Below, piece by piece: positions 1 through 31,855 of a stretch of DNA of 33,276 nt; position 1 is the first letter of the stretch, and each line of letters starts with the position of its first letter. A program made the position numbers and the translations under genes. A model generated the notes under the pieces. It ran no database searches and was not told the DNA's origin. It worked only from the letters and a program-made list of their open reading frames with translations. This DNA comes from Lentisphaerota bacterium (lineage in GTDB: Bacteria > Verrucomicrobiota > Lentisphaeria > Victivallales > Victivallaceae). Where the stretch lies: assembly GCA_012519765.1 (NCBI GenBank), contig JAAYPP010000043.1, positions 1-33,276 on the forward strand. The letters are read 5' to 3'.

Positions 1-947
1 AGGCAAGTGTTGATATGTTTGCCGAACCATTTAATTTTCATGCCGCGTTCGATAATGTCTTTCAGCGGTTCATTGAAGATGTTACCGAGAGATACATGTA
101 TATATGGACACGGCATGACGTCGCCGTATTGTGTGACAGAAATCATCCGTTTTACTGCGATGCATCCGAGATCCATTCCGTAAGACGGGGTAAGGTGGGT
201 AAAGACATTATATTTTTTTTCAAGCTCGCGCATATAATCCATATCCGCCTTGTCAACCAGCGCATCGAAGTTGCCTTCCCATGCTCCGACCGGTTTGGCG
301 TAAGTTACAAAAGTACCGATCCCCTTGGATTTCGCGAATTCAAGATATTCAATAAATTCGCTGGAGCGGATACGCTGATGGGTAACCACTGTAGAAAGAA
401 TGATATTCAATCCGGCGTTCAACGCTGCATCAATGGCTTTGAGTGCGCGTTGGTGGGAACCGGGAGCATGGCGAAAAGAGTCATGTTCTTGCGGATCCAG
501 ACTGTCTAGACTGAGCTGTATTTTATCAACCCCGATATTTTTCAAATGTTTTGCTTTCTCATCGTCAAGCAGCCAGCCGTTGGTATCGGAAGTTATGTAA
601 AACTTTTGTGGATCAATTGCTTCGACCAATGCGTCAAAGTCCTTGAACACCAATGGTTCTCCGCCGGTAATGACAATATTGGCAAGTCCCATCTCGTCGG
701 CCTGCCGGGAGAGTTCTCGGACATCATTCAACGTGAAAGAGCGCTTGTCGTTTTTACCTTGAAATTGTTTGACCGAACAGTGTTCGCAGCGAAAATTGCA
801 TTTGTAATTATATTGGAACTGAATAATGGCGATACTTTCGCCTCGTTCAACCTTTTCCGCATATTTAAGTATTTTTTCATAGACATAAGGTTTTTCTGTT
901 TTCAACAGGTTACGTTTGCATATTTCAGCGCTGCTTAACTCTTTCAT
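1..947 (-). CDS. radical SAM enzyme (SPASM/twitch-like C-terminal region), 3' end cut by window edge
   Basis: Absent from the ORF track because it runs off the left edge. Reverse-strand translation from ATG 947-945 (GGAG about 8 nt upstream) gives MKELSSAEICKRNLL...IIQFQYNYKCNFRCEHCSV (CX3CX2C radical SAM cluster motif), then ITGGEPLV, then a Cys-containing distal part (GCIAVKR...GDVMPCPY). The frame stays open to position 1. Confidence 0.8.
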   Translation of the reverse strand, partial: MKELSSAEICKRNLLKTEKPYVYEKILKYAEKVERGESIAIIQFQYNYKCNFRCEHCSVKQFQGKNDKRSFTLNDVRELSRQADEMGLANIVITGGEPLVFKDFDALVEAIDPQKFYITSDTNGWLLDDEKAKHLKNIGVDKIQLSLDSLDPQEHDSFRHAPGSHQRALKAIDAALNAGLNIILSTVVTHQRIRSSEFIEYLEFAKSKGIGTFVTYAKPVGAWEGNFDALVDKADMDYMRELEKKYNVFTHLTPSYGMDLGCIAVKRMISVTQYGDVMPCPYIHVSLGNIFNEPLKDIIERGMKIKWFGKHINTC

Positions 948-1007
948 TTTGCTCTCCTGAGGTTTATTAGGTCAAACATTAAAACTATACACTGCCGGCG
1001 CAAAGAT

Positions 1008-1505
1008 TCATATAAAACTGCGGTAAATTTCATGTATGGGCAGCAGGTTTTCAGGACATTGTTTGTGCCACAGCCATTGTCCGGGAAGAATTCTGCCTTC
1101 CCGGTAGCGGATATTTTCATTGATATTGTCAATAATTCTACATTTAAAAAGCATGGAGATAAAGTGGCTTCGGTTACGTTGTTTGGGGAGAATGAATTCT
1201 TTGATGACAAGTGGAGTCGGTTTGAATTTAACTGCGGTTCCAAGCTCCAGGCGGGCAACCTCGTGTATTCTTGTGGCAATAGTTTCCTGCCATCGGATAA
1301 TGCCGCCGGGGACGTGCCAGCCAGACTGTCCATCATGCTCTTCGCGCCAGGTCAGGAGCGTCCCCAATCCTGGTTTTTTAATCAGGAGATCGACATTAAT
1401 CATTGGAACGATACGGCTGGCAAGGAGAAATATTTCATCGGATAGACCTTGGCGAGGGTCATCAATTGTTGTTTCCAGTTCTAAAATATGCTTCGAAACG
1501 GTCAT
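1008..1505 (-). CDS. Nudix hydrolase, GDP-mannose mannosyl hydrolase (NudD/WbdQ)-like
   Basis: 165 aa. The degenerate Nudix box PGGIIRWQETIATRIHEVARLELG resembles the modified box of GDP-mannose mannosyl hydrolases. ATGA start/stop overlap with the upstream methyltransferase at 1502-1505. Confidence 0.65.
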   Translation of the reverse strand: MTVSKHILELETTIDDPRQGLSDEIFLLASRIVPMINVDLLIKKPGLGTLLTWREEHDGQSGWHVPGGIIRWQETIATRIHEVARLELGTAVKFKPTPLVIKEFILPKQRNRSHFISMLFKCRIIDNINENIRYREGRILPGQWLWHKQCPENLLPIHEIYRSFI

Positions 1506-2638
1506 TGCTTTGTCTCCAGTCCGTAATCTCGGACGATAGCGATGCTGATACTATCGCCGAATTTATTATTTAAGGTTTGGTAAACTTCGTCAGAATATGC
1601 CGCCGCCATTACGATAACTGCTTCTACGGGTTCGGATTCCAGCTTTTTCGGCGCAACTATGGGCAAATGGGAAGCAGGAGTGAATTTTCCCTGTTTAAAT
1701 GGCGCTGAATCAATTACATAGGCAATTTTATCAGCCAGTGCAGTCATTGATATTACCGCCAAGGCTTGATGTCCTGCGCCCCAGATTGCCACTTTTTGTG
1801 GAGCAAATTTCGCGATAAATGTTGTTAACTCATGTTTGAGTTTTTCTCGGGTTGCGTGAAAATCAGACAAATTAAGTTGCCGCTTTTTGCGGACAACTGC
1901 CGAAATGATATATTCATGCCAGACATTGTTCTGCTCAATGACTTCAAAGCCGTTGTTGTTGAGCGTTGTTTTCAACGTTTCACCAGTAAAATATAAAAGG
2001 TGGTCGGAAATAAATTCGGAAAACAGTTTATTGCGGATAATCATATCAAAATTAGGAACTTCAACAATGCCGACTCCGTCTGTGGTGAGATTGGCGCAAA
2101 TACCCCGAAGCGCGGAATTGGGATTGGGCATGTGTTCCAGGAAATTCAGAATGAAAAATGCATCGAACGGGGCATTTTTAAGCTTGGTTCTACTTTGTAT
2201 ATACTGTTTTGAAACGTCCAGTTGTTCACTGCGGCAGTATTTTACGGATTCCGCTCCGTATTCAATGCCGGAAACCTTGACGCCGCATTGAGCCATAAGA
2301 GATAAATATTCGCCGCGACCGCAACCGATCTCAATGATTTTTCTGTTTTTCAGTCTGTATTTTCTGACAAAGTCCTGGAATTGTCTGATGCGGAACTCTT
2401 TCATTTCCGGCGAATATGCGGCAGCTCTGATTACTTCTCTGTAATAGGGTACCGGATCGCAGTTCAGCTGTACCAACCCGCAACCTGCGCATTGGCATAC
2501 TTCCAGATCTACTCCGTCTTCTTGAGCCAGAGAATCTGAGTCTGGAAAGAACTGCGCGGATTTCGGCATATTTTTGTAACTGATCAATGGTTCCGGCCAG
2601 AAGTGGTGACCGCAAACCCGGCATTTTTTAATCGGCAT
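1502..2638 (-). CDS. SAM-dependent NDP-hexose C-methyltransferase-like protein (TylCIII-type architecture)
   Basis: 378 aa. N-terminal 4-Cys zinc ribbon (CRVCGHH...CQCAGCG), class I SAM-binding motif IIEIGCGRGEY, and a C-terminal Rossmann-like extension (VAIWGAGHQA) typical of sugar C-methyltransferases. Confidence 0.7.
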   Translation of the reverse strand: MPIKKCRVCGHHFWPEPLISYKNMPKSAQFFPDSDSLAQEDGVDLEVCQCAGCGLVQLNCDPVPYYREVIRAAAYSPEMKEFRIRQFQDFVRKYRLKNRKIIEIGCGRGEYLSLMAQCGVKVSGIEYGAESVKYCRSEQLDVSKQYIQSRTKLKNAPFDAFFILNFLEHMPNPNSALRGICANLTTDGVGIVEVPNFDMIIRNKLFSEFISDHLLYFTGETLKTTLNNNGFEVIEQNNVWHEYIISAVVRKKRQLNLSDFHATREKLKHELTTFIAKFAPQKVAIWGAGHQALAVISMTALADKIAYVIDSAPFKQGKFTPASHLPIVAPKKLESEPVEAVIVMAAAYSDEVYQTLNNKFGDSISIAIVRDYGLETKQ

Positions 2639-2661
2639 AAGAACAATTCCTTGGGTACGGA

Positions 2662-4455
2662 TTAAGTTGTCGATTTCACTGATTCCATGATCCGGTTGAA
2701 TTCATTCCGGTCCAGAAATGGCCATAAATCCTCCATTGGTTTGGAAACAATTCTTCCGTCTGGCAGCACTTCTGATGAGAGGCGTGGTGCGGTTGGAATT
2801 TCCGGATCAACCTTAACATTGCAGATTACCGGACCAGGCATGTTGAGGACTTCCAGCACTTTCGATTTCAGGTTACATGGAGTTTCGATTTCATAATGGG
2901 CGATTGCATAGGCGGCGGCAAGCCTGGATATGTCCGGAAGTTTCAGTCCGCTGTCGGCATTGCATGCCACCAGGTTTCCGTTGAATCGGGCTTTCTGCAT
3001 ATTGCAAATAGATCCGTATCCGCTGTTGTCAAGTACAAAAATTTTGATTGGAAGTTCAAGTGTCTTCAGGGTCTGAAGTTCCTGAATGTTATGTTGCATA
3101 CCACCGTCACCGATAATGCTGACCACTTTTTTGTCCGAGGCTACTGCCGCGCCGATGCTGGCGGGTAGCCCGAAACCCATTGAACCCAGTCCTGGAGTAT
3201 TCAGGATGCGCTGACCTTTTTTTATTTTTATGGCTTGCATCGTTATTTCGGCACATGCGCCGGAACTGCCGGGAACCACAACGAAACTGTCGTCAAGCAA
3301 CTCCGAAAGCACATCAACAAGATGATAAGTGTTGACTCTGGAAGCGGTTTCGTCAAGATATTCCGGCGCGACAACCGGATAGCGTGTTTGCCATTCTTTG
3401 CATAAACGCAACCAAGCAGAATAATCAAAATTCATCCCGTCGGTTTCCTTGAGCAGTTCTTCAATCAGCAATCCGGCGTCTGCGTTTAGCGAGTATTCGA
3501 ATTCCATGTTGAGTTTTTTGATTTCGGCCTCATCAATGTCAACTATTATTTTTTTTGCTCTAGGCGCAAAATTGGGATGGTTGAAACCGGTCTGACAAAG
3601 ATCCAGCCGGGCACCGATAATCAACAGCATATCGGAGAACTGTTGAACAAAATTTGCGCCGCGCTGTCCGACAATTCCCGGTCTACCTGTAAATAACCGG
3701 TGGGTTTCCGGCAGAAAATCCGCCGCTTTCCAGGTTGTCAGTACCGGGATGTTGAGTCGGTTAATCAGTTTGAGGAAGTTTTCCAGCGCGCCGGAAAGCC
3801 GGATACCATTACCGACCAGGATTGCCGGATGCCTGGAGGATGCCAACGCTTTTACAATAGTTTTCGCTACGGAGTTCAGGTCTGAACATTTTTCCTCCGG
3901 CGGAACAAATTCCAGGAGGTTGTTTTCGTCTACCATTGCGCCTTGGGTGTCGAGCGGTATATCGAGCCAGACCGGTCCTTTTCTACCATGCCGTGCCAGA
4001 TAAATTGCTTTCTGAAGTTCAAATTTAATCATTGCCGGATTTTTCACGCAGCATGCATATTTAGTTACCGGTGAAACGATGGAAACAATGTCTACTTCTT
4101 GGATACCCATCTGTCGGACTCCGCGTTCTTCCAGCAGGTCTTCTGTTTTCGCCTGTCCTGACAGCACGAGCATCGGAGTGGAATCAATCCATGCTCCGGC
4201 GACTCCGGTAATAGCGTTGGTGGAACCGGGGCCGGCAGTAACCAGCGTGACTCCGAGATTGTTGGTATATTGGCCATAAGCTTCAGCTCCGATTGCGGAA
4301 GCTTGCTCATGCAGATTGCAGACAAATTTCAGTTTGCGGTTTTTTCCAAGTGAATCGACCAAGTGCATACAGCCGCCACCGGGCAGCATGAAAACATGTT
4401 TGACGCCGACAACATCGGCGAGATAATCAAAAACCAAATCAGAAACTTTTTTCAT
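2662..4455 (-). CDS. thiamine-pyrophosphate enzyme of the acetolactate synthase large-subunit family (YerE-like candidate)
   Basis: 597 aa. N-terminal TPP pyrimidine-binding region (VKHVFMLPGGGCMHL, TAGPGSTNA). C-terminal TPP-binding motif GDGGMQHNIQELQT...FVLDNSGYG. No ilvN/ilvC neighbours; the gene sits among sugar-tailoring genes. Confidence 0.8.
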   Translation of the reverse strand: MKKVSDLVFDYLADVVGVKHVFMLPGGGCMHLVDSLGKNRKLKFVCNLHEQASAIGAEAYGQYTNNLGVTLVTAGPGSTNAITGVAGAWIDSTPMLVLSGQAKTEDLLEERGVRQMGIQEVDIVSIVSPVTKYACCVKNPAMIKFELQKAIYLARHGRKGPVWLDIPLDTQGAMVDENNLLEFVPPEEKCSDLNSVAKTIVKALASSRHPAILVGNGIRLSGALENFLKLINRLNIPVLTTWKAADFLPETHRLFTGRPGIVGQRGANFVQQFSDMLLIIGARLDLCQTGFNHPNFAPRAKKIIVDIDEAEIKKLNMEFEYSLNADAGLLIEELLKETDGMNFDYSAWLRLCKEWQTRYPVVAPEYLDETASRVNTYHLVDVLSELLDDSFVVVPGSSGACAEITMQAIKIKKGQRILNTPGLGSMGFGLPASIGAAVASDKKVVSIIGDGGMQHNIQELQTLKTLELPIKIFVLDNSGYGSICNMQKARFNGNLVACNADSGLKLPDISRLAAAYAIAHYEIETPCNLKSKVLEVLNMPGPVICNVKVDPEIPTAPRLSSEVLPDGRIVSKPMEDLWPFLDRNEFNRIMESVKSTT

Positions 4456-4474
4456 CAGTATTATTCCTCATATA

Positions 4475-5113
4475 TCAGGGTTGAGCCCGGTGTTCTGCGG
4501 GATTTTTTGCGAAGTTGTTCAATGTTATTTTTTCGAGATATTCAAATAGGTTCAAATCGCGGTTTCGGTTCCATGGGCGGGGAAATGCCAGGCTGTTTAT
4601 TCCGGCAGATTCCGCCAGGATCAGATTGGTTTCGCTGTCATCGATAAACAGGCTGACTTCGGCGATTTCAGACAACAGTTCCAGTTTGTTTTCATGATAA
4701 CGCACAATCTGGTCATCTTTGCGTGGAGACGGGACAAAATGAAATGTTCTGATCCAGTTGCCGTAATGTTTGATTACCCATTGTGCTGATGCCGGCGCAC
4801 AGCGGAAAGGCGTGGCCGTGAGTGCGGCGTGTCTGAATTTGTTGCCGTGTCGTATAAACCACTGCATCGTCTCTTCCACAGGCTTAAGCGAGGTTATGCG
4901 GCGCATTCTAAAATCGTCCAGCGATTCAAGATATGATTCACGCGAAATTCCCAACAGTCGGTCCGGCGGATTCTCCGATAGTTTTTCATATGTAATTCCG
5001 GTGCGGTTGAGTGTTTCGAACTCATCAAACCATTCATAAGTCAGATTGTTCAATACATCATCGACGTCCCAGACGATGAGCGGTTTCAACTGCGTATCTT
5101 CACGTCTGATCAT
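4475..5113 (-). CDS. HAD-superfamily phosphatase (NT5C-like)
   Basis: 212 aa. N-terminal DxDxV nucleophile motif (IVWDVDDVL). Its start lies 1 nt from the stop of the NeuB-like gene, implying co-translation. Confidence 0.6.
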   Translation of the reverse strand: MIRREDTQLKPLIVWDVDDVLNNLTYEWFDEFETLNRTGITYEKLSENPPDRLLGISRESYLESLDDFRMRRITSLKPVEETMQWFIRHGNKFRHAALTATPFRCAPASAQWVIKHYGNWIRTFHFVPSPRKDDQIVRYHENKLELLSEIAEVSLFIDDSETNLILAESAGINSLAFPRPWNRNRDLNLFEYLEKITLNNFAKNPAEHRAQP

Positions 5114-5114
5114 T

Positions 5115-6641
5115 TTATTGAATCGTTTTGCTTAGCCAGTCGGCATGGAAAGTCATATAGGTTTTCCTCTCTGAGGCCTCGGCAATATTGTCATCTTCAT
5201 AATAAGAATCGTCTTTGATATGTGTGGTCGATATTTCTTCGAGCACCGCACCGGTTTCACTGGCGAAGCGGTGTTTTTTATTGCGTTCGACGACAATAAT
5301 ATCCCCGGCATTGTAGGTGTTTTCGTCATCGTCAAGGCTGAGTGTCAGTTCGCCGTAAAGAACATGGAATGTTTCTTCTTTGACTTTGTGCGAGTGGTCA
5401 GGATTGGTCTGACCGGGTAGCAGTAGAATAATTTTTTTACAGTATTCGCGGTTTACGCAGGTGATGATGGTACATCCGTGGCGGTAAAAGTTATCAATTC
5501 CATAATGGTGGGATAATTCCAGTTCCAGTTTATCCTGCAGTTTGAGGTTGCTTTTTTTTATCAATGCACAGACTGCTTTAATTATTTCAAGAACTTTGTC
5601 TCTGATATTTGCGGTTACGGTTTGCGCCGCCAATACCGGTGAATTTGCCGGCAAAGCATTTTTCAAAGAGTATATCATATATTTGGACATGTCGTTGGCC
5701 TGCAGCTGTCCGTCAACACAGGGGATAGCATAAAAAACATCATCATCGGAAAGTTTTGTACCGGCCGGGAGCGCTTGTCTGCAAAAGACGCCACGACGCA
5801 ATCCGCTGATATCGGTATGTTCTTTTTCTGAAATGTCACGACGTTTTCCTGATACTCCGCACATGGAATATGCTTTTTCGGCGGCTTTGAGCCATTCCGC
5901 AATCTGCGCCGGAGATGAGGAGTAGTCATTGAGTTTATATTTTTCGTTAGCCACTCCGACATGGCGTTCAAAGGCGACTGCTCCTTTGGCGATGGCAATT
6001 TTGATCGGGTCGAGATCACCCGGAGCTTCGTGAGTGGAAAAACCTATCGGCAGCGGTTTGTAACGGGCTTTGAATAAATCTATCTGGTTCATTTCAAGTT
6101 CATGTTCAGGTGTTGGGTATGAACCGACACAATGCATCAGGCACAGGGTTTTTCGGCGGTGCTCAAAAAATGTTACTACCCGGTCGATTTCTTCAATGGT
6201 TGCACCGGCGGTTGAGGCTATCAATGGCAGACCGGTTGCCGCGATACGTTCAAGCAGCGGCCAGTCGGTGAGCGAACAACTGGCGATTTTGATAATTTCA
6301 AAACCGTGTTTTTCCACCATATCCACCGATTTTTCGTCAAAAGGGGTGCAGATGCTCAAAAATCCCAGTTTATGGAGTTCATCTTTCATTTGTAGAAAAT
6401 CAACTTCGGCCAGTCGGGTTTCGGAAAATCGTTTAATGTATTTGATGTCCTGCCGGTTGCGGTAATCCTGATGGATGAAAGTGTCCAGATCGCGGTACTG
6501 GAATTTGACCGCGAACTTGAAGTTGAAACTTGCGGTTGCCGCCCGAAGTTCACGGATTATTTTCAGGCCGTGCTCGACGTCGCCCATGTGATTATTCGCC
6601 ATTTCAAATATAAAAAGCCGTGAAAAAATATCTTCTGTCAT
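5115..6641 (-). CDS. NeuB-family (sialic/nonulosonic acid synthase-like) PEP-condensing enzyme with SAF domain and C-terminal cupin domain
   Basis: NeuB TIM-barrel motifs (FIFEMANNHMGD, KIASCSLTDWPLL, LCLMHCVGSYP, GFSTHE, AFERHVG). SAF-like segment (RRGVFCRQALPAGTKLSDDDV). C-terminal cupin motifs (GQTNPDHSHKVKEETFHVLYG; GDIIVVERNKKH). Start reassigned to ATG 6641 (AGGAG 8 nt upstream) in place of the track's TTG at 6671. Confidence 0.75.
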   Translation of the reverse strand: MTEDIFSRLFIFEMANNHMGDVEHGLKIIRELRAATASFNFKFAVKFQYRDLDTFIHQDYRNRQDIKYIKRFSETRLAEVDFLQMKDELHKLGFLSICTPFDEKSVDMVEKHGFEIIKIASCSLTDWPLLERIAATGLPLIASTAGATIEEIDRVVTFFEHRRKTLCLMHCVGSYPTPEHELEMNQIDLFKARYKPLPIGFSTHEAPGDLDPIKIAIAKGAVAFERHVGVANEKYKLNDYSSSPAQIAEWLKAAEKAYSMCGVSGKRRDISEKEHTDISGLRRGVFCRQALPAGTKLSDDDVFYAIPCVDGQLQANDMSKYMIYSLKNALPANSPVLAAQTVTANIRDKVLEIIKAVCALIKKSNLKLQDKLELELSHHYGIDNFYRHGCTIITCVNREYCKKIILLLPGQTNPDHSHKVKEETFHVLYGELTLSLDDDENTYNAGDIIVVERNKKHRFASETGAVLEEISTTHIKDDSYYEDDNIAEASERKTYMTFHADWLSKTIQ

Positions 6642-6724
6642 CTTTATTTGCTCCTGGTTACCGTTTGACAAATTAATATCCGGACATAAAACTTATGATA
6701 ATTGCCGTGTTCCTGACTGTGCTG

Positions 6725-6757
6725 AAATTTGCGCGCGCATTATGCGCGCGCGAATTT
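6725..6757. repeat. GC-core palindromic repeat, copy 1 (AAATTTGCGCGCGCA-TTA-TGCGCGCGCGAATTT)
   Basis: 15-nt arms (one T:G position) around a 3-nt loop. Lies in the 125-bp gap between the rfbH stop (6767) and the neuB-like start (6641). Confidence 0.9.
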
Positions 6758-6766
6758 TAAGCCGAT

Positions 6767-8086
6767 TTATTTAATAAATTTTTTAATTGTTTTCACCATA
6801 TAATCCAACTTTGCTTCAGACATGCCGGGATAAACTCCGATCCACAAGCTGTCATTCATGATTTTGTCGGTATTGGTTAACGTCCCGGCAATCCGATAGT
6901 CGCATCCTTCGACTAATGATTCAAAGCACGGGTGTCGCGTCAGATTGCCGGCAAACAAATTTCTGGTTTGAATCCGGTTGGCTTCCAGATGCTGCGCCAA
7001 TTCATTGCGGGAAAAAGGCGTGTTGTCGCGACGAGTCAGCATGAAGCCGAACCAGGAAGGTTCACTGTTTTCAGTTGTTTCCGGCAGGATGAAAATATCG
7101 CGGCAGTCGCGAAGCGAACTGCGCAGAAATGCGAAGTTTTCACGGCGTTTCCGGATGAACTCCGGTAATTTTTCAAGTTGAGCGCAGCCGATTGCCGCCT
7201 GTAAATCGGTGGCTTTCAGGTTGTAACCGAAATGGCTGTAAACATATTTATGATCATAGCCTTCCGGAAGTGTGCCGAATTTGCCTGAAAAGCGGCATCC
7301 GCAGGTATTGTCAAATCCGGTTTCGCACCAGCAGTCGCGTCCCCAGTCACGCATGGACAGCAGGATTTTTTTCAAGGTCGGATTGTCGGTATAAACGGCA
7401 CCGCCTTCGCCCATGGTCATATGGTGGGGCGGATAAAAACTGGAAGTCCCGACATCGCCGAAGGTTCCGGTGTAACAGTTTTGGTATTGTGCTCCGAGCG
7501 CATCACAATTGTCTTCGATTAACCATAAGTTGTGGTGGCGGCAGAAATCTTTAACTTCTTTGAGTGCGAATGGATTGCCTAGCGTATGTGCGGCGAAAAC
7601 CGCTTTGGTTTTCACGCTTAAAGCGGCATTGAGCAAGTCTGGCCGGATATTGCCATTGAGGTCGACGTCGACAAATACGGGAACCGCGCCATATTGAATA
7701 ATCGGCGCAACAGTGGTCGGGAAACCGGCGGCAACGGTAATTACTTCGTCACCGCGTTTTATAGTGCGCTCCCCCAGCAACGGTGAAGTCAACGCCATAA
7801 ACGCCAGCAGGTTTGCTGATGAGCCGGAGTTTACCAGCAAAACATGTTTGATGCCCAGAAAGTCAGCCAGCCCTGATTCGAATTGTTTGGTCCACTTGCC
7901 GGCGGTCAGCCAAAACTCCAAGGCGGCATCGGTAAGATTGAGAAGTTCATTCTCGTCAAAAATTCTTCCCGCATAGTTGATGCGGGAATGGGTTGCGTCG
8001 AAAACTCCGTCATCACGGTGAGCCAGCCGATAATATTCGGCGATTTGCGACATGATTGAATTTTTCAGCTCATCGATCTTGTTCAT
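6767..8086 (-). CDS. rfbH: CDP-6-deoxy-D-xylo-4-hexulose 3-dehydrase (E1; RfbH/DdhC), DegT/DnrJ/EryC1 family
   Basis: 439 aa with long collinear blocks matching RfbH as I recall it: GDEVITVAAGFPTTV, HTLGN, NLWLIEDNCDALG, FYPPHHMTMGEGGAV, RDWGRDCWCETGFDNTCGCRF (Fe-S Cys cluster region), GYDHKYVYSHFGYNLKATDLQAA, SEPSWFGF, TNTDKIMNDSLWIGVYPG. Confidence 0.85.
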   Translation of the reverse strand: MNKIDELKNSIMSQIAEYYRLAHRDDGVFDATHSRINYAGRIFDENELLNLTDAALEFWLTAGKWTKQFESGLADFLGIKHVLLVNSGSSANLLAFMALTSPLLGERTIKRGDEVITVAAGFPTTVAPIIQYGAVPVFVDVDLNGNIRPDLLNAALSVKTKAVFAAHTLGNPFALKEVKDFCRHHNLWLIEDNCDALGAQYQNCYTGTFGDVGTSSFYPPHHMTMGEGGAVYTDNPTLKKILLSMRDWGRDCWCETGFDNTCGCRFSGKFGTLPEGYDHKYVYSHFGYNLKATDLQAAIGCAQLEKLPEFIRKRRENFAFLRSSLRDCRDIFILPETTENSEPSWFGFMLTRRDNTPFSRNELAQHLEANRIQTRNLFAGNLTRHPCFESLVEGCDYRIAGTLTNTDKIMNDSLWIGVYPGMSEAKLDYMVKTIKKFIK

Positions 8087-8160
8087 AAGTGTGCCGGAGT
8101 GGTAAAAAGTGATATTTTAAAACTAATTAATATTTTATACTCTCAATCGGGAAATGCCAA

Positions 8161-8853
8161 TCATTTGCGGCGGGATTGCATCAGGATTTGGAAATAACTT
8201 TCCAGCGCGACTTGTGCCGGTAATGGCTGATGTGCGACAATTGCGTCGCATAATTCGCTGTGGATTTTTAACATTTGTTTATGGTAGCGGTAAGTGCTGA
8301 AAATGTTGTTGCCTTCAGCTTTTTTGATGGTGTTCGTCATCAGCACGATTTTGTTGTAATGCGACAGCAGCAGACGGTTTCCTGAGAATTCGACAATCTG
8401 GCGGTGAAAGCCGTCTTCAATAGCCATGGCTACCGCTTCGCAGTTGGCAATCTGCATTTCCCCAATAAAACATTGCAGGATTTTGCCTTGTTTAATGTTT
8501 ATTTTTTCCGCTGCCAGCCGGACTGACTCGAATTCCAGCGCGCGGCGGGTTTCAAGGATTTCCATGATTTCATTATCCGCCGGTTGTTCGGACAGTCCAT
8601 ACGGCGTTGTCATGATATCTGCCGGACGACACATGACGATATTCCCGGAACCGCGGCGGCTCTCCAGCAGTCCGATAATTTCAAGAGTTCTGATGGCTTC
8701 GCGAATCGAGCTGCGCCCGACTTTGAGCAATTGCGACAATTTGCGTTCCGGCGGCAGTCGCTGACCGGGTTTGAAGTTGCCTTCGGTAATCATTTTATTA
8801 AGCAATTGTGCTACGTTAAGGCGGATACTGGATTTATTTTGAGAATCCATCAT
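8161..8853 (-). CDS. GntR-family transcriptional regulator with FadR/FCD-type C-terminal domain
   Basis: 230 aa. Winged-HTH signature LPPERKLSQLLKVGRSSIREAIRTLEIIGLLESRRGSGNIV followed by a helical ligand-binding region. Its ATG overlaps the stop of the upstream GT-C gene (ATGA at 8850-8853). Confidence 0.8.
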   Translation of the reverse strand: MMDSQNKSSIRLNVAQLLNKMITEGNFKPGQRLPPERKLSQLLKVGRSSIREAIRTLEIIGLLESRRGSGNIVMCRPADIMTTPYGLSEQPADNEIMEILETRRALEFESVRLAAEKINIKQGKILQCFIGEMQIANCEAVAMAIEDGFHRQIVEFSGNRLLLSHYNKIVLMTNTIKKAEGNNIFSTYRYHKQMLKIHSELCDAIVAHQPLPAQVALESYFQILMQSRRK

Positions 8854-10247
8854 TGCGATCCTTGTTTAGACGATAATCTTTTAAGTTGTTCATTTATTTT
8901 TCGTACTGCCGGAACCAGCGCCAATGCGGCCATTGCCGAGAGCATCGGCAATGCCGGCAAGTGATAACGCGGCACGGTTATCGGCCCGGGAAGAAACAGG
9001 TAATATTCGACAAAAGCGAGAAACAGAAAAAACATGAAAAATTGTTTCTCAGCCAGCCATTTGATCAGTTGCCATAATGCTCCGGCATAGCAGAGCGCCG
9101 GAATCAACAGCAATGGTATTATGAGGGCGATAACGCCGGTTCGCCCGTTGAAATAATGTTTTATCGCGGCAACGATACCTTGGGACTTGAGGACATTCAG
9201 AGTTCCCCGGTCACTGGAGGTTATGCCGAGCAGTTCACTGAATGTCGCCGCATCCGGGATCAGCACATGCGGTGAAAAATGCATGGAGAAATACGTCAAA
9301 GGATACTTGAAGATCAATCGGCGAAACAGAGCAATCCGATAATTTACCTGTGACGCGCCGTCCGGATATTTCGCTTTATCCTCAAATTCGGCATCAATCT
9401 CTTTTATCAAACGCTGTTTTTCGTCCTCATAATCGGTACCGTTTACTTTTGCCAGCAGCATTGCGCCGTTTTGATGGTACATTGCTCCGGTGTTGGTGTC
9501 GATGCAGAAACCTGCGCCATTACGGTAGTTGCGGAACATCCACGGGGTCAGGATCATGTAAAAGATAATCAATGAACCCATGGCCGTTATTAGTTTTCGT
9601 TTTATATTCAGTCCAGGCATTATCGCAATCAGAAACAGCGCCGGAAAAATCCAGACCGCCGCGATCGGACGAATCAACGCGGAAAGCGCCGCGGTCGCAA
9701 TCGCGGCAAAACACCAGACGATTTTTTTGTTACGACAGAATAATATGAAGAAGAAAAACTGCCATGCGGCAAAAAAAGTAAAGAAACTATCGGTCAAAAG
9801 CATCGGACTTAAGGCAATTGCGGTGATATTGAAGCCGAATAATGCTGCCGCCGCCGCACCGGTAGCGATTCCTCCCCAGAGCCGCCCGCTCAGATATACC
9901 GGAATCAAGGTCAGCGCAGCAATCAGCGACAAAATGGTGATCAGGGCGGCATACGATTCGCCGAAAAGTTTGAAGACGGTTGCAATCAACAATGAAAAAC
10001 CGGGCGGTCGCCCCGACATTTTTTCTCCGGAACCGGGCGCCGAGTCAAAATTCCCGTCTCTTGCCAGTGCCAGCGCCGGCAAAAGATAGCCCTGGGTGTC
10101 CGGTCGAGAAAAATGCTCCGGCATATCGGCAAACCCGGGAACTGCTACCACCATGCGTACGGTAAAAGCAGTCAGCGTCAGCAGTGCAACCCAGAAGATT
10201 TCACGGCGGCGTTCACGGATGAATGATGTTATTATACGGAAGTTCAT
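8850..10247 (-). CDS. polytopic membrane glycosyltransferase, GT-C fold (ArnT/PMT, GT39/GT83-like)
   Basis: 465 aa, with many predicted TM helices throughout. The first periplasmic loop carries an acidic/aromatic segment (FSRPDTQGYLLPALALARDGNF...GRPPGFSLL), as in ArnT/PMT_2-type transferases. First gene of the minus-strand cluster. Confidence 0.55.
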   Translation of the reverse strand: MNFRIITSFIRERRREIFWVALLTLTAFTVRMVVAVPGFADMPEHFSRPDTQGYLLPALALARDGNFDSAPGSGEKMSGRPPGFSLLIATVFKLFGESYAALITILSLIAALTLIPVYLSGRLWGGIATGAAAAALFGFNITAIALSPMLLTDSFFTFFAAWQFFFFILFCRNKKIVWCFAAIATAALSALIRPIAAVWIFPALFLIAIMPGLNIKRKLITAMGSLIIFYMILTPWMFRNYRNGAGFCIDTNTGAMYHQNGAMLLAKVNGTDYEDEKQRLIKEIDAEFEDKAKYPDGASQVNYRIALFRRLIFKYPLTYFSMHFSPHVLIPDAATFSELLGITSSDRGTLNVLKSQGIVAAIKHYFNGRTGVIALIIPLLLIPALCYAGALWQLIKWLAEKQFFMFFLFLAFVEYYLFLPGPITVPRYHLPALPMLSAMAALALVPAVRKINEQLKRLSSKQGSQ

Positions 10248-10458: not shown

Positions 10459-11862
10459 GTGGCAAGAAAAACTAAAGATATTGACGGTGAATTTGATGTA
10501 GTGATTGCTGGAAGCGGGCTCGGCGGTTTGACCGCGGCCAATATTCTGGCGCGCAACGGTTGGCGGGTTCTCCTGGCGGAACAGCATTTTCAGCTTGGCG
10601 GTTTGGCAACCTGTTTCCGTCGCAAGCAGCATATATTTGATGTCGCGCTTCACGGATTTCCCATCGGTATGCAGAAAACTTTGCGAAAATATTGGTCCCG
10701 CGAAATGGCTGAACATATAATTCAGGTCAAAAGCATCCGTTTTGACAATCCGCAATTTTCTCTTGAAACGACTTTCACTTCTGAAGATTTTACCAATATT
10801 CTGGTTGACAAATTCGGCATTGAGCGGAGCGTAGTTGACGCTTTCTACCACGAACTCAGCGAGATGAATTTCTACGATGCCGACAATCGGGTTAACCGTG
10901 AACTTTTCGATAAATATTTTCCAGGACGCAATGATGTGGTTCGCCTTCTGATGGAACCTATCACTTATGCCAACGGTTCAACTCTGGACGAACCGGCCAT
11001 CACTTACGGCATTGTCTTTTCCAATTTCATGAGCAAGGGCTGCTATACTTTTTCCGGCGGAACCGACCTGATGCTGGAAATGATGCAGCAGGAACTCGAA
11101 AAAAATGGCGCCACTATCTTGACCAATGCCAAAATAGAAAAAATCAAGGTCAATAACGGACGTGTCGCTTCAGCCGTCATCAATGGACGAGAAATTAAAT
11201 GCCGCACCGTGATTTCTAACGGTAATCTGCTCAATACCATCAATAATTATGTCGGCAGTGAACATTTTTCCGACGGTTTCAGAGAAAAGGTCGCCGGAGT
11301 CAGGCTCAATACCAGCAGTTCACAGGTATATATCGGATTTCGCCCCGACGTAAAAGTCGATTTTATCGGCGATCTGCTTTTTACCTCCAAACATCCCGTA
11401 TATGATCCGGAAGCGCTGTTGGCAGCTGATTCCACCAGCCGAACATATTCAGTTTACTACCCGGAAATTCGCCCCGGTTCCAACGACTTTACCGTTGTCG
11501 CGTCAATGAATGCCCGTTATCAGGATTGGGCAGGTATGGGCGCGGCGGAATATCAGCACGCCAAAGACAAACTGGTCGAAAATACCCTGAACGCGCTGGA
11601 AGAATATATTCCGGATCTCCGGACCAAAATCGATTATACCGAGGCGGCAACGCCGCTTACCTTTGAACGCTACACCCTGCACGGCAGCGGCGCGTCGTTC
11701 GGTACAAAATTTGAAGGACTTCAAGTCAGCATGAAGCTGTCTGATGAGGTCGGCGGTTTGTTTCATACCGGTTCTGTCGGCATCATTATGTCCGGATGGC
11801 TCGGCGCCGCCAATTACGGGGTAATTACCGCCAATAATGCCGACAAATATCTGTCATCATAA
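10459..11862 (+). CDS. NAD(P)/FAD-dependent oxidoreductase, phytoene desaturase (CrtI)-like family
   Basis: 467 aa. N-terminal dinucleotide-binding motif DVVIAGSGLGGLTAANILARNG...LAEQHFQLGG. GTG start at 10459 with GGAG 8 nt upstream. Confidence 0.75.
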   Translation: MARKTKDIDGEFDVVIAGSGLGGLTAANILARNGWRVLLAEQHFQLGGLATCFRRKQHIFDVALHGFPIGMQKTLRKYWSREMAEHIIQVKSIRFDNPQFSLETTFTSEDFTNILVDKFGIERSVVDAFYHELSEMNFYDADNRVNRELFDKYFPGRNDVVRLLMEPITYANGSTLDEPAITYGIVFSNFMSKGCYTFSGGTDLMLEMMQQELEKNGATILTNAKIEKIKVNNGRVASAVINGREIKCRTVISNGNLLNTINNYVGSEHFSDGFREKVAGVRLNTSSSQVYIGFRPDVKVDFIGDLLFTSKHPVYDPEALLAADSTSRTYSVYYPEIRPGSNDFTVVASMNARYQDWAGMGAAEYQHAKDKLVENTLNALEEYIPDLRTKIDYTEAATPLTFERYTLHGSGASFGTKFEGLQVSMKLSDEVGGLFHTGSVGIIMSGWLGAANYGVITANNADKYLSS

Positions 11863-11998
11863 ATGACGCCGCCAGAGCATGACAGGACGTGAACAGGCGA
11901 TCTTCATTCTTGTTGATCCAGAATGCTTTTACAGATTTCCGGGCTGGAATCGGGACAAATGGAATTTTTCGCGCTGAATGACTGATTTTGTGTGTCTG

Positions 11999-12031
11999 AA
12001 ATTCGCGCGCGCATAATGCGCGCGCGAATTT
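11999..12031. repeat. GC-core palindromic repeat, copy 2, inverted loop (AAATTCGCGCGCGCA-TAA-TGCGCGCGCGAATTT)
   Basis: Perfect 15-nt arms. Lies in the convergent gap between the oxidoreductase stop (11862) and the 826-aa gene stop (12061), so it could act as a bidirectional terminator. Confidence 0.9.
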
Positions 12032-12060
12032 AAAAGATCTCAAAGGCTGTTTTTTTCAGG

Positions 12061-14541
12061 TTATTGGTAGATGGTTTCACTGAGCAGATAATTGCAGATT
12101 TCCGGAATCATTTTCAGTGGCAATATTTCCTGATATCCCTGATTTTCTGGGTCATGGCAGTAATTTTCATCATCAATTTGATGTTGCCGTAAATGGAAAT
12201 TCAAATTGATTATTTTTACTCCGAAATCACGAGTTAGCCGGCGTAGCTCGGTAATCATTTCATTTTCGATATCACCAATATTTTTCTGGGGAATAGGAGT
12301 AGCCATATATATTATTTTTATCTCCGGATTTTCCCGTAGTGCTTGGAGGATAGCGGACAAGGTCCGGATCTGGCTGCGTACCGGAATGCGATTGCGCAGG
12401 TCGAATGCCGATGGTATTATCAGTGCCGCATCGGCATCGGAATTTTTAACGGACGGTAAGATATAGATCAACGACTTTCGCATGGCAAACAAAATATGTT
12501 CTTGCGGCAATTGCAACAATTCGGTCTGGATATTTTTTTTATCGAAAGCATCGGCAAGTGTCTTGCTGAAACTGCCGAAGTCATCGGCTATAACCAGCAT
12601 CTTATGAGGTAAGGCTATCTGGTTGCGGAGCAAAATCGGCAGTTCCCATTTGCGCAGTTCGGATAACGTCGGCCGATGCAGAACCGGAATCACTTGTGCG
12701 CCGGTTTCATCATAAAAATTGCCGTCATCGCCATAGCTCAAGGGCGGCAGTTCTGACAATGGAATAAAACGAAGATTTTTTTCAGCGAAAACCAGCCCGG
12801 GCATTTTTAGTTTGAGGTTTACGTCGAGCTGACTGCGGAGTTCCTTTCCGGTAATACGTACCGGAAATTTGTAGAGTCCGTCCTGAGCGAAACGTTCTTC
12901 AGCAGCGGTTTTTTTGGCCGGAACGGTTATGGATTTGGTTTCTGAAGGGAATACCGGGTTTTCACGGCTGCTTGAAGTTTCAATTTGAACCATGTTTTCA
13001 AATGGCATGGCGGAAACAGCCTCAACAAACATATCCTGACTTTCATCATCAAAAATGAAATCCGGAGTATGAAGTTGCATGCGCAATGAAGCGGCATGCA
13101 GTGGCGAACTGTCAATTTTGCGGTTGCCGAGCCAGAAAAGCTGAGTTGGCGGATATTTCCCGCCGCCAGCCCCAAGTTTTGCACCAGGTTCGCAAACCAT
13201 GGTTACGCTAGGTCCGGTAGCCACTGGTTTGCCGTTCAGGAACCAGGTAAATTCGGTATCCGGCGCGACGGCTTGGGCATTAATCAAATTCATTTTGACC
13301 AATTTTTCGATAAAAATATCCGCAGTACGGGTGCGGCGTACCAAGGGCAGGGTTTCCCCTTTTCGGTTCTGAAGAGCAAATGGTTGATTCGGCCATCCCG
13401 GGGCAAAATTATCGTCAGAGAGCAGCTCAAATTGTTTGGTTCCAGGTTTTCGCCAGCGCAGAATCATGCTGGCAGGGTGCTGGTCGCGATGAAAATGAAG
13501 TTTCAGCCGATGAAGTCCCGCTTCAAGCTCTGTTTTAGCAGGAGTTTCGCTCCGGTGTTCGCGATAAATGGTAATCAGTTCTTTGTCGTCAAGATAAAGA
13601 ATAGCGCCGGCTTCTGTTTCAAGCTGGAAATCATATTCTCCGGTTTCCGGTACAATCAGCGAGGTCTCGAAAACGATGCCGAAGTGGCGACGTGAGTCAA
13701 AAGAGTCCGTAAGAATCTGAAATGAATTAAGGTTCCCTTCAAAAAATGGTTTCGGCTTCGATTTGGGATTGAATTTGAAAAGCGCTTTAAAACTATTAAG
13801 CGGTTCCTTTTGTGAGCGTTCCGCCAATTTGTCAACATTATTATAAATTCGCAAATAGTTCAGATGGATCATTTGCCATGCCCAGTTCAGTCGGCTGGAA
13901 TGCGGACGGTATGGATTAGCATAAGATGAAATCATTTTTTGAGTTGTGAACCAGTTCTGACGCCGCGAACGGTCACGATAACGCCAGCACAGAAAATCTT
14001 CATTATCAAAAGGTTTTTTCCAATCTGCCGGCAGTCCGCTTCTGGATTTGCCCAGTAAAATATTGAGCAGCACATAATTGAACATCCAGCGGGATTGTGC
14101 CTTGAAGCGGCGATCCAGGATGTCCATTTGATTCTTCTCCCATTCCTTGGCGGTCAGGTGGTTGTGCCAGCGTGCAAATGCCATCGCGTAGAGACGGCGG
14201 TCTTCTGGAACAGCTCCTGATTCAGCATTCCACTGGTCAACCGGAGAGGTTTCCGGTAGCCCGAAATAGATAAAACGTTCGGCATGTTCTGGGGCAGGAG
14301 CGATCACTAATCCGAGTGTCTGATGCAGATAGAATGGAATTTTTACACCGTCAGCAGATCTGATGTCAATGCCTTTGGCAAGCAGAATCGGCAATGGATA
14401 AGCGCTGAAATCCAGGTATCCGATAAGTTCCGGACGAGTACTGTTTATGGCGAGTCGGAATTCTGCTTCAGTGACATGCCATGGTATGGAAAAGCCAGAA
14501 GTTGCGGCAGTCAGGATCATTATGAAAAATATTTTTTTCAC
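12061..14541 (-). CDS. secreted PA14-domain protein with possible SGNH/GDSL-like C-terminal region
   Basis: 826 aa. N-terminal signal peptide (MKKIFFIMILTAATSG). PA14-like block (ETGEYDFQLETEAGAILYLDD...GLHRLKLHFHRDQHPASMILRWRKPG). The C-terminal roughly 190 aa resemble an SGNH-type hydrolase fold, but weakly. GTGA overlap with the upstream gene at 14538-14541. Confidence 0.6.
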   Translation of the reverse strand: MKKIFFIMILTAATSGFSIPWHVTEAEFRLAINSTRPELIGYLDFSAYPLPILLAKGIDIRSADGVKIPFYLHQTLGLVIAPAPEHAERFIYFGLPETSPVDQWNAESGAVPEDRRLYAMAFARWHNHLTAKEWEKNQMDILDRRFKAQSRWMFNYVLLNILLGKSRSGLPADWKKPFDNEDFLCWRYRDRSRRQNWFTTQKMISSYANPYRPHSSRLNWAWQMIHLNYLRIYNNVDKLAERSQKEPLNSFKALFKFNPKSKPKPFFEGNLNSFQILTDSFDSRRHFGIVFETSLIVPETGEYDFQLETEAGAILYLDDKELITIYREHRSETPAKTELEAGLHRLKLHFHRDQHPASMILRWRKPGTKQFELLSDDNFAPGWPNQPFALQNRKGETLPLVRRTRTADIFIEKLVKMNLINAQAVAPDTEFTWFLNGKPVATGPSVTMVCEPGAKLGAGGGKYPPTQLFWLGNRKIDSSPLHAASLRMQLHTPDFIFDDESQDMFVEAVSAMPFENMVQIETSSSRENPVFPSETKSITVPAKKTAAEERFAQDGLYKFPVRITGKELRSQLDVNLKLKMPGLVFAEKNLRFIPLSELPPLSYGDDGNFYDETGAQVIPVLHRPTLSELRKWELPILLRNQIALPHKMLVIADDFGSFSKTLADAFDKKNIQTELLQLPQEHILFAMRKSLIYILPSVKNSDADAALIIPSAFDLRNRIPVRSQIRTLSAILQALRENPEIKIIYMATPIPQKNIGDIENEMITELRRLTRDFGVKIINLNFHLRQHQIDDENYCHDPENQGYQEILPLKMIPEICNYLLSETIYQ

Positions 14542-30686: not shown

Positions 30687-31855
30687 TTAGCGATTGCCTT
30701 TTGCTCGATTGTGAGTCTTGCATAACATCTGGCAATTTTTGATATTTGTCTCGCCACCTTTGCTCCATGCTGCTACATGGTCAGCGTCCATTTCCGCAAG
30801 CTTCCAGATTGTGCTTTTGTTGGCATCATGTCCAATAGCGCAAAGCGGGCAGTTTGATACACCTTTTGCTTCCGCCTTTTTGGTCTGGGAGGTATAGACA
30901 GATTTTTTTGTTGCTTCGTCAAAAACCCGGACATCCAACAATTTTGTATCTGTTAAACCGCCGAGGACGTACTCAAAAATGCCTCTCCGGTTTTTGATAT
31001 ACGGATCTGCGTAAAGTTTTTTAACTTCTGCGGAAACCTGTGCGGGACTATAGGACGTCTTGTGATACTTTTCGTACAACCGCCCCCACTCAAGCCCGCG
31101 CATCTCACTTTCGACATCATTAAATACTGCAGAAACCCAATCAATCACGGTGTTGAAATATCTTTTTAATTCATCGATATTATTGTCAAAGCGGTGACGG
31201 CTCATGTAGTCACCGATATTGCCATTGCTCACCCAATCTAATGCGCATTCCAGGAAATCCTGCCGGTTGGCGCTGCCTTTGATATAGGCGCTCCACTTCT
31301 GGATATTGGCGTTTTGTCCATTGCTGAATTCCTCTTTGCCGTGCGTCACAAACGGTCCAGAATATACGGCATTGAGCAATTCCTGATCATTCAGCGGAAC
31401 CCCGGCAATATTAATGGTCTTAAACCATTCTTTGATTTCGCTTTCCGTCCCTTCGCATTCATAGATAAGAAGTTTAGTTTCCAGAATTCGGGTTTTTTGT
31501 CTTTTGCCATTCCGCTAAAATACTGTTCCATCCCGTTAGCGTCTTTGATCGCAAATTTATCTGTCACAAAACGTCCGGCGCTGGTGATGCGCTGCTGCCC
31601 GTCCAAAACCTCCAAATTGTTTTCAGAAACCTTGTTAAAATATATCAAGCCAATCGGGTAACCCTTGAGTATTGATTCAATAACGGCAATTTCTCTTTTC
31701 CCGCCATCAGAGGCATAGATGTAGTTGCGCTGATATTCCGGTTGAATCGTAAGTTTGCCAGACAGACCAAAGAGCCCCTTGCCCTCCAGTTCGTTATAAA
31801 CAAATCCATCGCAAATATCTTTGACCGTGATGTCGGTTTTTAAACTTGTTTTCAT
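30687..31855 (-). pseudogene. DUF262 (ParB-like, DGQQR) - HNH nuclease gene interrupted by a -1 frameshift at a homopolymer
   Basis: Track ORFs 31391-31855 (DUF262 N-terminus: [17 protein letters not shown]) and 30687-31379 (C-terminal HNH: DADHVAAWSKGGETNIKNCQMLCKTHNRAKGN) are collinear parts of one protein. Adding one A to the A6 run (T6 on the plus strand, 31493-31498) restores ...[52 protein letters not shown]..., giving about 389 aa. Confidence 0.8.

Follow-up and report, generated by a model that had tools for sequence, protein, structure and literature searches.

Erwiniose (ErwE/F/I/J, Pectobacterium atrosepticum), caryophyllose (MMAR_2331/2332, Mycobacterium marinum) and gastriose (MygE) are acyl-branched sugars made by a common logic in which an aldolase produces a 4-hydroxy-2-oxo acid, a YerE-like carboligase dependent on thiamine diphosphate (ThDP) carries out the addition at C4, and the resulting branch is then the substrate of a reductase (PMC9306805; PMC12247030). 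The YerE-like enzymes ErwE and MMAR_2332 take gamma-hydroxy-alpha-keto acid donors from the neighboring aldolase (PMC9306805; reviewed in PMC12247030). Their proposed acceptor is cytidine diphosphate (CDP)-4-keto-3,6-dideoxyglucose, replaced in vitro by a simplified ketone analogue, and ErwE rejects pyruvate (PMC9306805). The stretch of DNA analyzed here, 33,276 nucleotides (nt) of the Lentisphaerota contig JAAYPP010000043.1 (hereafter the window), contains part of a 14-gene cluster, namely its first nine genes; the host is a member of the Victivallales. In our reading, the product of this cluster would be a CDP-activated 3,6-dideoxyhexose that bears a long polyhydroxyalkyl branch on C4 and is delivered via a lipid carrier, a reading to which we assign a probability of roughly 0.55.

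The cluster has in common with the acyl-branched sugar pathways the genes for CDP-4-keto-3,6-dideoxyglucose, a YerE-like carboligase, a reductase using NAD(P)H and, in some cases, an S-adenosylmethionine (SAM) methyltransferase, as well as the encoding of the donor-making enzyme beside the ThDP gene (PMC9306805). It differs in the donor maker, which is a pyruvate aldolase in those pathways and here a phosphoenolpyruvate (PEP)-dependent NeuB-type synthase fused to a cupin, usually accompanied by a HAD-like protein; the donor acid would also be longer, a sugar acid of C8-C9 if the guess of lyxose or mannose as the aldose holds. Unlike those pathways, the cluster encodes a Nudix protein and a pair of radical SAM enzymes, its product would be delivered by a family 2 glycosyltransferase (GT2), GtrA and a GT-C transferase rather than by a Leloir glycosyltransferase, and its hosts are mostly uncultured anaerobes and archaea. 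The pathway to yersiniose A (DdhA-D, YerE, YerF; Yersinia pseudotuberculosis) likewise shares E1 3-deoxygenation, ThDP-dependent C4 branching and ketoreduction (PMC12247030), but YerE adds a two-carbon branch from pyruvate, the pathway has an E3 (DdhD) that was not found in our cluster, and yersiniose clusters are without NeuB, HAD, Nudix and radical SAM genes. The literature searched yielded no characterized pathway in which precisely these enzymes come together, as the first-pass annotation of the window had also supposed. Nor did that literature, which does not cover a 2024 in silico survey of more than 200 YerE-like clusters, link a NeuB-type synthase to YerE-type clusters.

The features of the window part of the cluster are as follows (lengths in amino acids, aa):

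8850..10247, minus strand: GT-C fold membrane glycosyltransferase (PMT_2/ArnT-like), 465 aa
8161..8853, minus strand: GntR/FCD transcription regulator, 230 aa
8132..8160, minus strand: promoter-like site in the GntR-RfbH gap, TTGGCA-17-TAAAAT
6767..8086, minus strand: RfbH/DdhC, CDP-6-deoxy-4-hexulose 3-dehydrase (E1), 439 aa
6725..6757, minus strand: G+C-rich hairpin in the RfbH-NeuB-cupin gap, from an inverted repeat and RNA folding
5115..6641 (listed open reading frame to 6671), minus strand: NeuB-type synthase and cupin fusion, 508 aa from the ATG
4475..5113, minus strand: HAD-superfamily (NT5C-like) phosphatase candidate, 212 aa
2662..4455, minus strand: YerE-like ThDP-dependent carboligase (the ThDP enzyme), 597 aa
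1502..2638, minus strand: TylCIII/TcaB9-type nucleoside diphosphate (NDP)-hexose C-methyltransferase, 378 aa
1008..1505, minus strand: divergent Nudix-fold protein resembling GDP-mannose mannosyl hydrolase (GDPMH), 165 aa
1..947, minus strand: radical SAM/SPASM enzyme, truncated at the edge of the window (full length of 352 aa on longer contigs)

In the scheme that we propose, RfbH would convert CDP-4-keto-6-deoxyglucose to CDP-4-keto-3,6-dideoxyglucose, following two enzymes that are encoded just upstream in related genomes and are unlinked here. Alongside this, the cupin would isomerize a ketose to an aldose, of the type D-xylulose to D-lyxose or D-fructose to D-mannose. The NeuB domain would condense this aldose with PEP to a 3-deoxy-2-ulosonic acid, and the HAD-like phosphatase would strip a phosphate before or after that step. 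Because the expected NeuB product is itself a 4-hydroxy-2-oxo acid, the fusion protein would take the place of the aldolase, and since acids of this kind are the YerE-like donors of the published scheme (PMC9306805), the pairing of NeuB with the ThDP enzyme fits that scheme better in this way. The ThDP enzyme would then decarboxylate the ulosonic acid and add the acyl-anion equivalent, a C7-C8 chain, to the C4 ketone; a short-chain dehydrogenase/reductase (SDR) would reduce the branch carbonyl in the manner of YerF, and the product would be tailored by the C-methyltransferase together with both radical SAM enzymes. This product would remain CDP-bound until an ArnC/GtrB-like GT2 loads the sugar onto polyprenyl phosphate, after which GtrA would help to flip the lipid-linked sugar and the GT-C enzyme would pass it to an acceptor in the envelope. 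More tentatively, and with slightly less than an even chance in our estimate, the outcome would be a class of sugars not seen before, of roughly C13-C15, in which an entire 3-deoxy-ulosonic acid from a bifunctional isomerase and PEP synthase (NeuB-cupin) is grafted with decarboxylation onto C4 of a CDP-3,6-dideoxyhexose and reshaped by the two radical SAM enzymes.

The arrangement of the genes is the first line of evidence. The nine genes follow one another on the minus strand between 1 and 10247 (open reading frame listing and translation). The tight packing described by the first-pass annotation was verified, with ATGA overlaps at 8850-8853 and 1502-1505 and intergenic gaps of 1, 19 and 23 nt; the remaining gaps measure 74 nt (GntR-RfbH), 125 nt (RfbH-NeuB-cupin, with the ATG at 6641 taken as the start) and 60 nt (Nudix-radical SAM). 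Most of its nine gene labels were recovered by profile search, the HAD and Nudix labels being weaker. Its extent of nine genes proved too short. On longer metagenome contigs that encode an identical Nudix protein (L001-L006, two of them labeled biogas fermenter), the cluster runs on leftward through the rest of the radical SAM/SPASM gene and then the genes for a B12-binding radical SAM enzyme of 551 aa, an SDR of 312 aa, a GT2 of 320 aa and GtrA (145 aa), up to a convergent GH4 gene that closes it. The cytidylyltransferase, 4,6-dehydratase, E3 and NeuA that had been expected beyond the left edge are not present there on these contigs, and the genes after GtrA are unrelated.

Conservation of the neighborhood, which the first-pass annotation had left to be checked, is extensive. 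The NeuB-cupin family has 7689 matches, with 57-65% identity between phyla, and relatives are encoded in at least 568 stretches of a one-genome-per-species collection. The best 80 of these stretches formed our comparative set, which was searched by tblastn with the cluster proteins; all of its open reading frames were also clustered, and the recurrent families were annotated with Pfam and NCBIfam. The 80 loci span Lentisphaerota, Planctomycetota, Nitrospirota, Omnitrophota, Patescibacteria, Desulfobacterota and Bacteroidota and also include cyanobacteria, Methylophaga, Nanoarchaeia, Methanoperedens and Altiarchaeota. Overall, the cluster is spread over hundreds of bacterial and archaeal species. 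Because the same gene set is syntenic in 80 loci of many phyla, the arrangement is not due to chance.

The partner most often retained is the ThDP enzyme, found in 68/80 loci by tblastn and in 71/80 by clustering of reading frames. RfbH follows in 52/80, the C-methyltransferase in 50, the HAD-like protein in 47, the radical SAM/SPASM enzyme in 40, the Nudix protein in 32, the GT2 in 25, the B12-binding radical SAM enzyme in 19, the 312-aa SDR in 11 and GtrA in 7. In about 70/80 loci the NeuB-cupin gene (often then HAD) stands directly before the ThDP gene on the same strand, with HAD between the two in 44-47/80. Exceptions mostly involve contigs that end early or a ThDP gene elsewhere in the locus, and only L023 and L077 are without one in the sequence available. 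The usual order begins with cytidylyltransferase, 4,6-dehydratase, RfbH, NeuB-cupin, HAD, ThDP enzyme, (SDR) and Nudix and continues with C-methyltransferase, (B12-binding radical SAM), radical SAM/SPASM, (SDR) and GT2; the Nudix gene is usually beside that of the C-methyltransferase. Beyond these, the families that recur comprise methyltransferases, radical SAM enzymes, GT2s, GtrA, a second HAD type, a metallo-beta-lactamase-fold protein and Wzy_C, and neither an aldolase, NeuA/KdsB nor E3 forms a recurrent family in the 80 loci.

The ThDP enzyme holds the three domains TPP_N, TPP_M and TPP_C and scores below every acetolactate synthase cutoff in NCBIfam (344 versus 538). Its best solved relatives are JanthE of Janthinobacterium sp. 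HH01 (8rph, 379 bits) and 5ahk (279 bits), which we take to be the Pseudomonas protegens homologue of YerE; E. coli IlvB (238 bits) and plant acetohydroxyacid synthase (AHAS, ~215 bits) score lower. In a neighbor-joining tree, the window enzyme and all of its cassette homologues form one clade, joined next by JanthE and then by 5ahk, with AHAS outside. Profile scores and tree together led us to reject a genuine acetolactate synthase and answer the earlier question of YerE versus IlvB/IlvI in favor of the YerE-like, ketone-accepting carboligases, which predicts carboligation onto a ketone. JanthE, at 35% identity in the multiple alignment, is YerE-like and accepts pyruvate, long donors and 4-hydroxy-2-oxo acid donors together with ketone acceptors. 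Its alignment with the window enzyme covers the C-terminal extension, whereas the AHAS matches do not; the ThDP motif reads CDG in JanthE and the canonical GDG in the window enzyme. Separately, the locus of one uncultured archaeon (L018) encodes two paralogues of the ThDP enzyme (3237-5045 and 10594-12378), one in the cassette clade and the other grouping with 5ahk, a pair that hints at two branching steps or two donors.

The NeuB-cupin protein comprises a NeuB domain (PF03102, 136.9 bits) and a cupin domain (PF07883, Cupin_2, 48.9 bits). Its listed TTG start, which gives 518 aa, is probably wrong, because most homologues are 508 aa long, as is the product counted from the ATG at 6641, which is preceded by AGGAG; on other contigs, the called genes encode 490-508 aa. 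The protein falls below the equivalog cutoffs of both NeuB_NnaB (127.7 versus 399.65 bits) and PseI (111.8 versus 340.25 bits). The fold of the NeuB domain matches those of NmNeuB, PseI and SpsE, yet it is only ~20% identical to NmNeuB and PseI. On cutoffs and identity together, an ordinary N-acetylneuraminic acid (Neu5Ac) or pseudaminic acid (Pse) synthase was rejected, a result that bears on the placement question raised by the first-pass annotation. The closest solved structure is the uncharacterized Chromobacterium violaceum protein 3g8r (384 bits, 51% identity), and the metal-binding histidines H200 and H223 are invariant in 13 homologues.

For the C-terminal domain, we searched with an AlphaFold model of the whole protein (mean predicted local distance difference test score of 83.7) using Foldseek. 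The fold matches of the cupin are D-lyxose and mannose isomerases, and it superposes on the D-lyxose isomerases 2y0o and 7nzo with a TM-score of 0.66 and a root mean square deviation of 2.6-3.0 Å. The alignment retains VNxxYCxK..PGQTxPxHxH..K[EQ]ETF..KHxF, whose HxH..E..H residues align with those of D-lyxose isomerases, and the Pfam Lyx_isomer profile reaches 18.8 bits, below its cutoff of 20.8. The domain is therefore predicted, from model and motif, to be a metal cupin of the D-lyxose isomerase type. An NDP-sugar ketoisomerase or epimerase of the FdtA/RmlC type is not favored, with none among the 50 best fold matches.

Comparison with the NeuB/NeuA, PseI/PseF, Kdn-9-P and KdsD/A/C/B pathways places this protein in a familiar biochemical context. 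Common to all would be the joining of PEP and an aldose by a NeuB-fold enzyme, with a HAD phosphatase as a possible partner, and an isomerase would supply the aldose here as KdsD does for KdsA, although here it is a fused cupin and not a SIS-domain protein. Unlike in the nonulosonic and octulosonic acid pathways, no enzyme activating an acid with cytidine monophosphate (CMP) was found, and the acid is proposed to be consumed by the ThDP enzyme rather than transferred. Specifically, a CMP-ulosonate synthetase (NeuA, PseF or KdsB) was found neither in the window, nor on L001-L006, nor among the recurrent families of the 80 loci, where single-copy unclustered reading frames were not annotated.

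The acceptor side is represented in the window by RfbH, which matches the equivalog profile NF011936 over residues 3-439 with 705.2 bits against a cutoff of 423. The hallmarks of an E1 enzyme are a [2Fe-2S] motif of the form C-X57-C-X-C-X7-C and a histidine in place of the lysine that binds pyridoxal phosphate (PLP). By sequence, the homologue shows every one that we checked, with Cys194/252/254/262 in just that spacing and His221 (in PPHHMTMGEGG) at the PLP-lysine position of the aminotransferases. A dedicated E3 partner (DdhD/AscD) was not found in the window or on L001-L006; general cellular reductases may stand in for E3, as reported for SpnQ. Of ddhA, ddhB and ddhC, the window itself has ddhC (RfbH) only. 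A glucose-1-phosphate cytidylyltransferase family occurs in 46/80 related loci (one representative at 420 bits versus an NCBIfam cutoff of 300) and a 4,6-dehydratase-like family in 53/80 (one representative at 492 bits versus a CDP-glucose 4,6-dehydratase cutoff of 278). In the close relatives L007, L010, L015 and L017, both genes lie upstream of RfbH, a position occupied by GT-C and GntR in the window lineage. The earlier picture of a glycan cluster built around an NDP-4-keto-deoxyhexose and a YerE-like ThDP enzyme is borne out by the profiles, by the ThDP enzyme tree and by these CDP-glucose genes.

The remaining biosynthetic proteins are assigned with varying clarity. The C-methyltransferase matches Methyltransf_23 (PF13489) and Methyltransf_14 (PF08484, 61.6 bits), with the zinc-finger N-terminal domain Methyltransf_13 (PF08421) at 26.6 bits, below its cutoff of 31.3; its PDB matches are the sugar 3-C-methyltransferases 5t6b (KijD1-type), TcaB9 and 4rv9/MtmC (E values of 1e-21 to 1e-16). 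The radical SAM/SPASM enzyme (PF04055, 98.2 bits; PF13186, 27.5 bits; full length on L001-L006) is usually the most conserved cassette protein where it is present, mostly at 60-80% identity and down to 46%. Across 16 homologues of the HAD-like protein, WDVDDVLN (DxDxV) and a DD pair farther along are invariant or almost invariant, and 8 of the 16 match NT5C weakly (best E = 2e-4) while 3 match Hydrolase; the window protein itself has no Pfam match, and the family profile is without a PDB sequence match. The Nudix protein reaches 27.8 bits with the GDPMH profile NF011963 (cutoff 146). GDPMH is the best solved match of its family profile (E = 4.5e-8, over the Nudix-box half), and the Nudix box of the window protein is degenerate in the same manner as that of GDPMH.

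As to delivery, the GT-C enzyme (PF13231 PMT_2, 38.9 bits versus a cutoff of 26.1), whose gene shares an ATGA overlap with the GntR gene, lies in the window, and the GT2 and GtrA genes lie just past its left edge on L001-L003. The nearest named families of the GT2 are PgfS (185 bits) and ArnC (121 bits), both below cutoff. By family assignment, the three together form the known three-component layout of lipid-carrier glycosylation, in keeping with the earlier suggestion of lipid-linked GT-C delivery. The GtrA/B/C, ArnC/E/F/T and PgfS systems likewise encode a GT2 polyprenyl-phosphate synthase, a GtrA-family protein and a GT-C enzyme together. In place of the UDP-glucose or UDP-Ara4FN of the Gtr/Arn systems, the donor here would be a giant branched deoxysugar linked to CDP. 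Also unlike in those systems, the GT-C linkage is specific to the window lineage, because none of the 80 related loci has a homologue near the cassette.

Three other explanations deserve consideration. The one that survives best, although we regard it as unlikely, is that the cluster makes two products for the same glycan, the ThDP enzyme adding a yersiniose-like two-carbon branch from pyruvate while NeuB-cupin and HAD make a Kdn/Kdo-like acid. The pairing of a NeuB enzyme with a HAD phosphatase follows the known logic of Kdn-9-P and Neu5Ac-9-P synthesis. Pyruvate is the substrate of YerE (PMC12247030) and is also taken by JanthE alongside longer donors. However, independent modules would not be expected to travel together as these do, NeuB-cupin being almost never found without an adjoining ThDP gene, and neither a CMP-transferase for such an acid nor a second transferase type is recurrent in the 80 loci.

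Less likely still is the route favored by the first-pass annotation, in which the Nudix protein, perhaps with HAD, frees the tailored deoxyhexose from its nucleotide and NeuB extends it with PEP to a higher-carbon ulosonic acid that is then activated and transferred. This route has a precedent in pseudaminic and legionaminic acid biosynthesis, where the nucleotide is removed from the modified sugar ahead of a condensation of the NeuB type. It would also give a task to the Nudix protein, whose best solved relative is a nucleotide-sugar hydrolase, and the NT5C-like character of the HAD-like protein means that the two could yield a free sugar. The related loci speak against it. The Nudix gene is found in only ~40% of them, and the L015 cassette is complete without Nudix and HAD (nucleotidyltransferase, 4,6-dehydratase, RfbH, NeuB-cupin, ThDP enzyme, C-methyltransferase, radical SAM, SDR and GT2). 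No activating enzyme of the NeuA/KdsB type recurs, and the usual transferase is instead an ArnC/GtrB-like GT2, characterized members of which use NDP-sugar donors. Furthermore, the cupin resembles isomerases of free common sugars, which points to a substrate from central metabolism, and the strict adjacency of the NeuB and ThDP genes would be left without a reason. The CDP-bound route is favored over release from the nucleotide because of this adjacency, the missing activating enzyme and the L015 cassette. Finally, although ALS-like ThDP enzymes include plain decarboxylases, and the methyltransferase and the radical SAM pair would be at home in a secondary-metabolite cluster too, it is improbable that the ThDP enzyme is a plain 2-oxo-acid decarboxylase giving a 2-deoxy-aldose or its acid, or that the cluster makes a non-glycan small molecule, given a ThDP clade that is sister to ketone-accepting carboligases and a cassette that is consistently found with CDP-glucose genes, E1, GT2 and GtrA.

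Several points nevertheless weigh against the CDP-bound branching scheme. Gene identities, family placement and synteny are established, but every substrate, the order of the steps and the product are inferred, none of the substrates or products having been observed. The 3-deoxy-ulosonic acids are mostly cyclic in solution and could be poor donors for a ThDP enzyme. No E3 reductase partner of the E1 enzyme was found in any of the related loci, and acceptor supply in this organism is unproven because the cytidylyltransferase and 4,6-dehydratase are missing from the locus. The scheme has no part for the Nudix protein, and the assignment of the HAD-like protein, as NT5C-like, is weak. GT-C and GntR are tied to the cassette by position alone, tblastn having placed neither in any of the 80 related loci. 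The neighbor-joining tree of the ThDP enzyme, moreover, carries no support values.

Relative to the acyl-branched scheme, in which the ThDP branching logic is known, the elements that appear to be new are PEP-dependent donor synthesis, the radical SAM pair, the Nudix protein and lipid-carrier delivery. If the proposed scheme is true, there would be a second, PEP-dependent way to the donor acids of ThDP-dependent acyl branching. NeuB-type synthases would gain a new metabolic role in feeding ThDP carboligases with donors, and both the very large unnamed NeuB-cupin family and the orphan structure 3g8r would acquire a function. It would also suggest what kind of physiological substrate is used by the clade closest to JanthE, itself a YerE-like enzyme that has drawn interest for making chiral tertiary alcohols. 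An unusually large surface sugar would then occur across many uncultured phyla, including the candidate phyla radiation and archaea, and possibly on the flagella of Methylophaga.

The related loci offer further observations on the cassette and its surroundings. In four Methylophaga loci (L059, L061, L079 and L084, at roughly 1-8600 of each), the cassette immediately follows flagellar genes, those for FlgI, FlgK and a flagellin-like FlgL, a position that is usual for flagellin glycosylation islands. One of them, L079, is the cultured strain Methylophaga sulfidovorans DSM 11578, which makes this strain a cultured carrier of the cassette. A gene pair encoding a 363-aa GT2 and then a 406-aa radical SAM enzyme, not present in the window cluster, accompanies the cassette in many phyla (L023, L024, L031, L033, L045, L055, L060, L066, L080, L081 and L083). 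In seven loci (L030, L032, L036, L040, L043, L045 and L052), a 247-aa metallo-beta-lactamase-fold protein is encoded between the 4,6-dehydratase and NeuB-cupin. RfbH is missing at that position in most of the seven, and these loci may therefore represent a variant built on some acceptor other than a 3-deoxy one.

Regulation of the cluster was approached through its regulator gene and intergenic sequences. The GntR/FCD regulator matches PF00392 (68.3 bits) and PF07729 (43.5 bits). The promoter-like site at 8132-8160 has 10/12 consensus matches, and an AT-rich palindrome (8119-8134) adjoins it; the biosynthetic genes may be served by a promoter of their own, possibly one under GntR control. The site is a lead only, and the scan for promoters and terminators is uninformative on operon structure, because its total of 17 sites is no higher than the 16.0 expected from shuffled sequence. 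The hairpin at 6725-6757, in the minus-strand transcript, is formed by a G+C-rich 16-nt inverted repeat with 94% complementarity (arms AAATTCGCGCGCGCAT / ATGCGCGCGCAAATTT) and folds as RNA with -24.3 kcal/mol (z = -3.7 versus shuffles). With no clear U-tract, this hairpin could serve as an attenuator, an RNA stabilizer or a protein-binding site.

The remainder of the window consists of housekeeping genes, among them those for RuvA, PheA, NadC and RNase R. Between these and the glycan cluster, two large overlapping minus-strand genes at 12061-16976 encode proteins of 826 aa (with a PA14 domain only) and 812 aa (Pfam-negative). Also on the minus strand, at 30687-32976, what looks like a small restriction or defense island is made up of adjoining genes for an EcoRI-type adenine methyltransferase at 31852-32976, a GmrSD_N/DUF262 protein at 31391-31855 and an HNH nuclease at 30687-31379.

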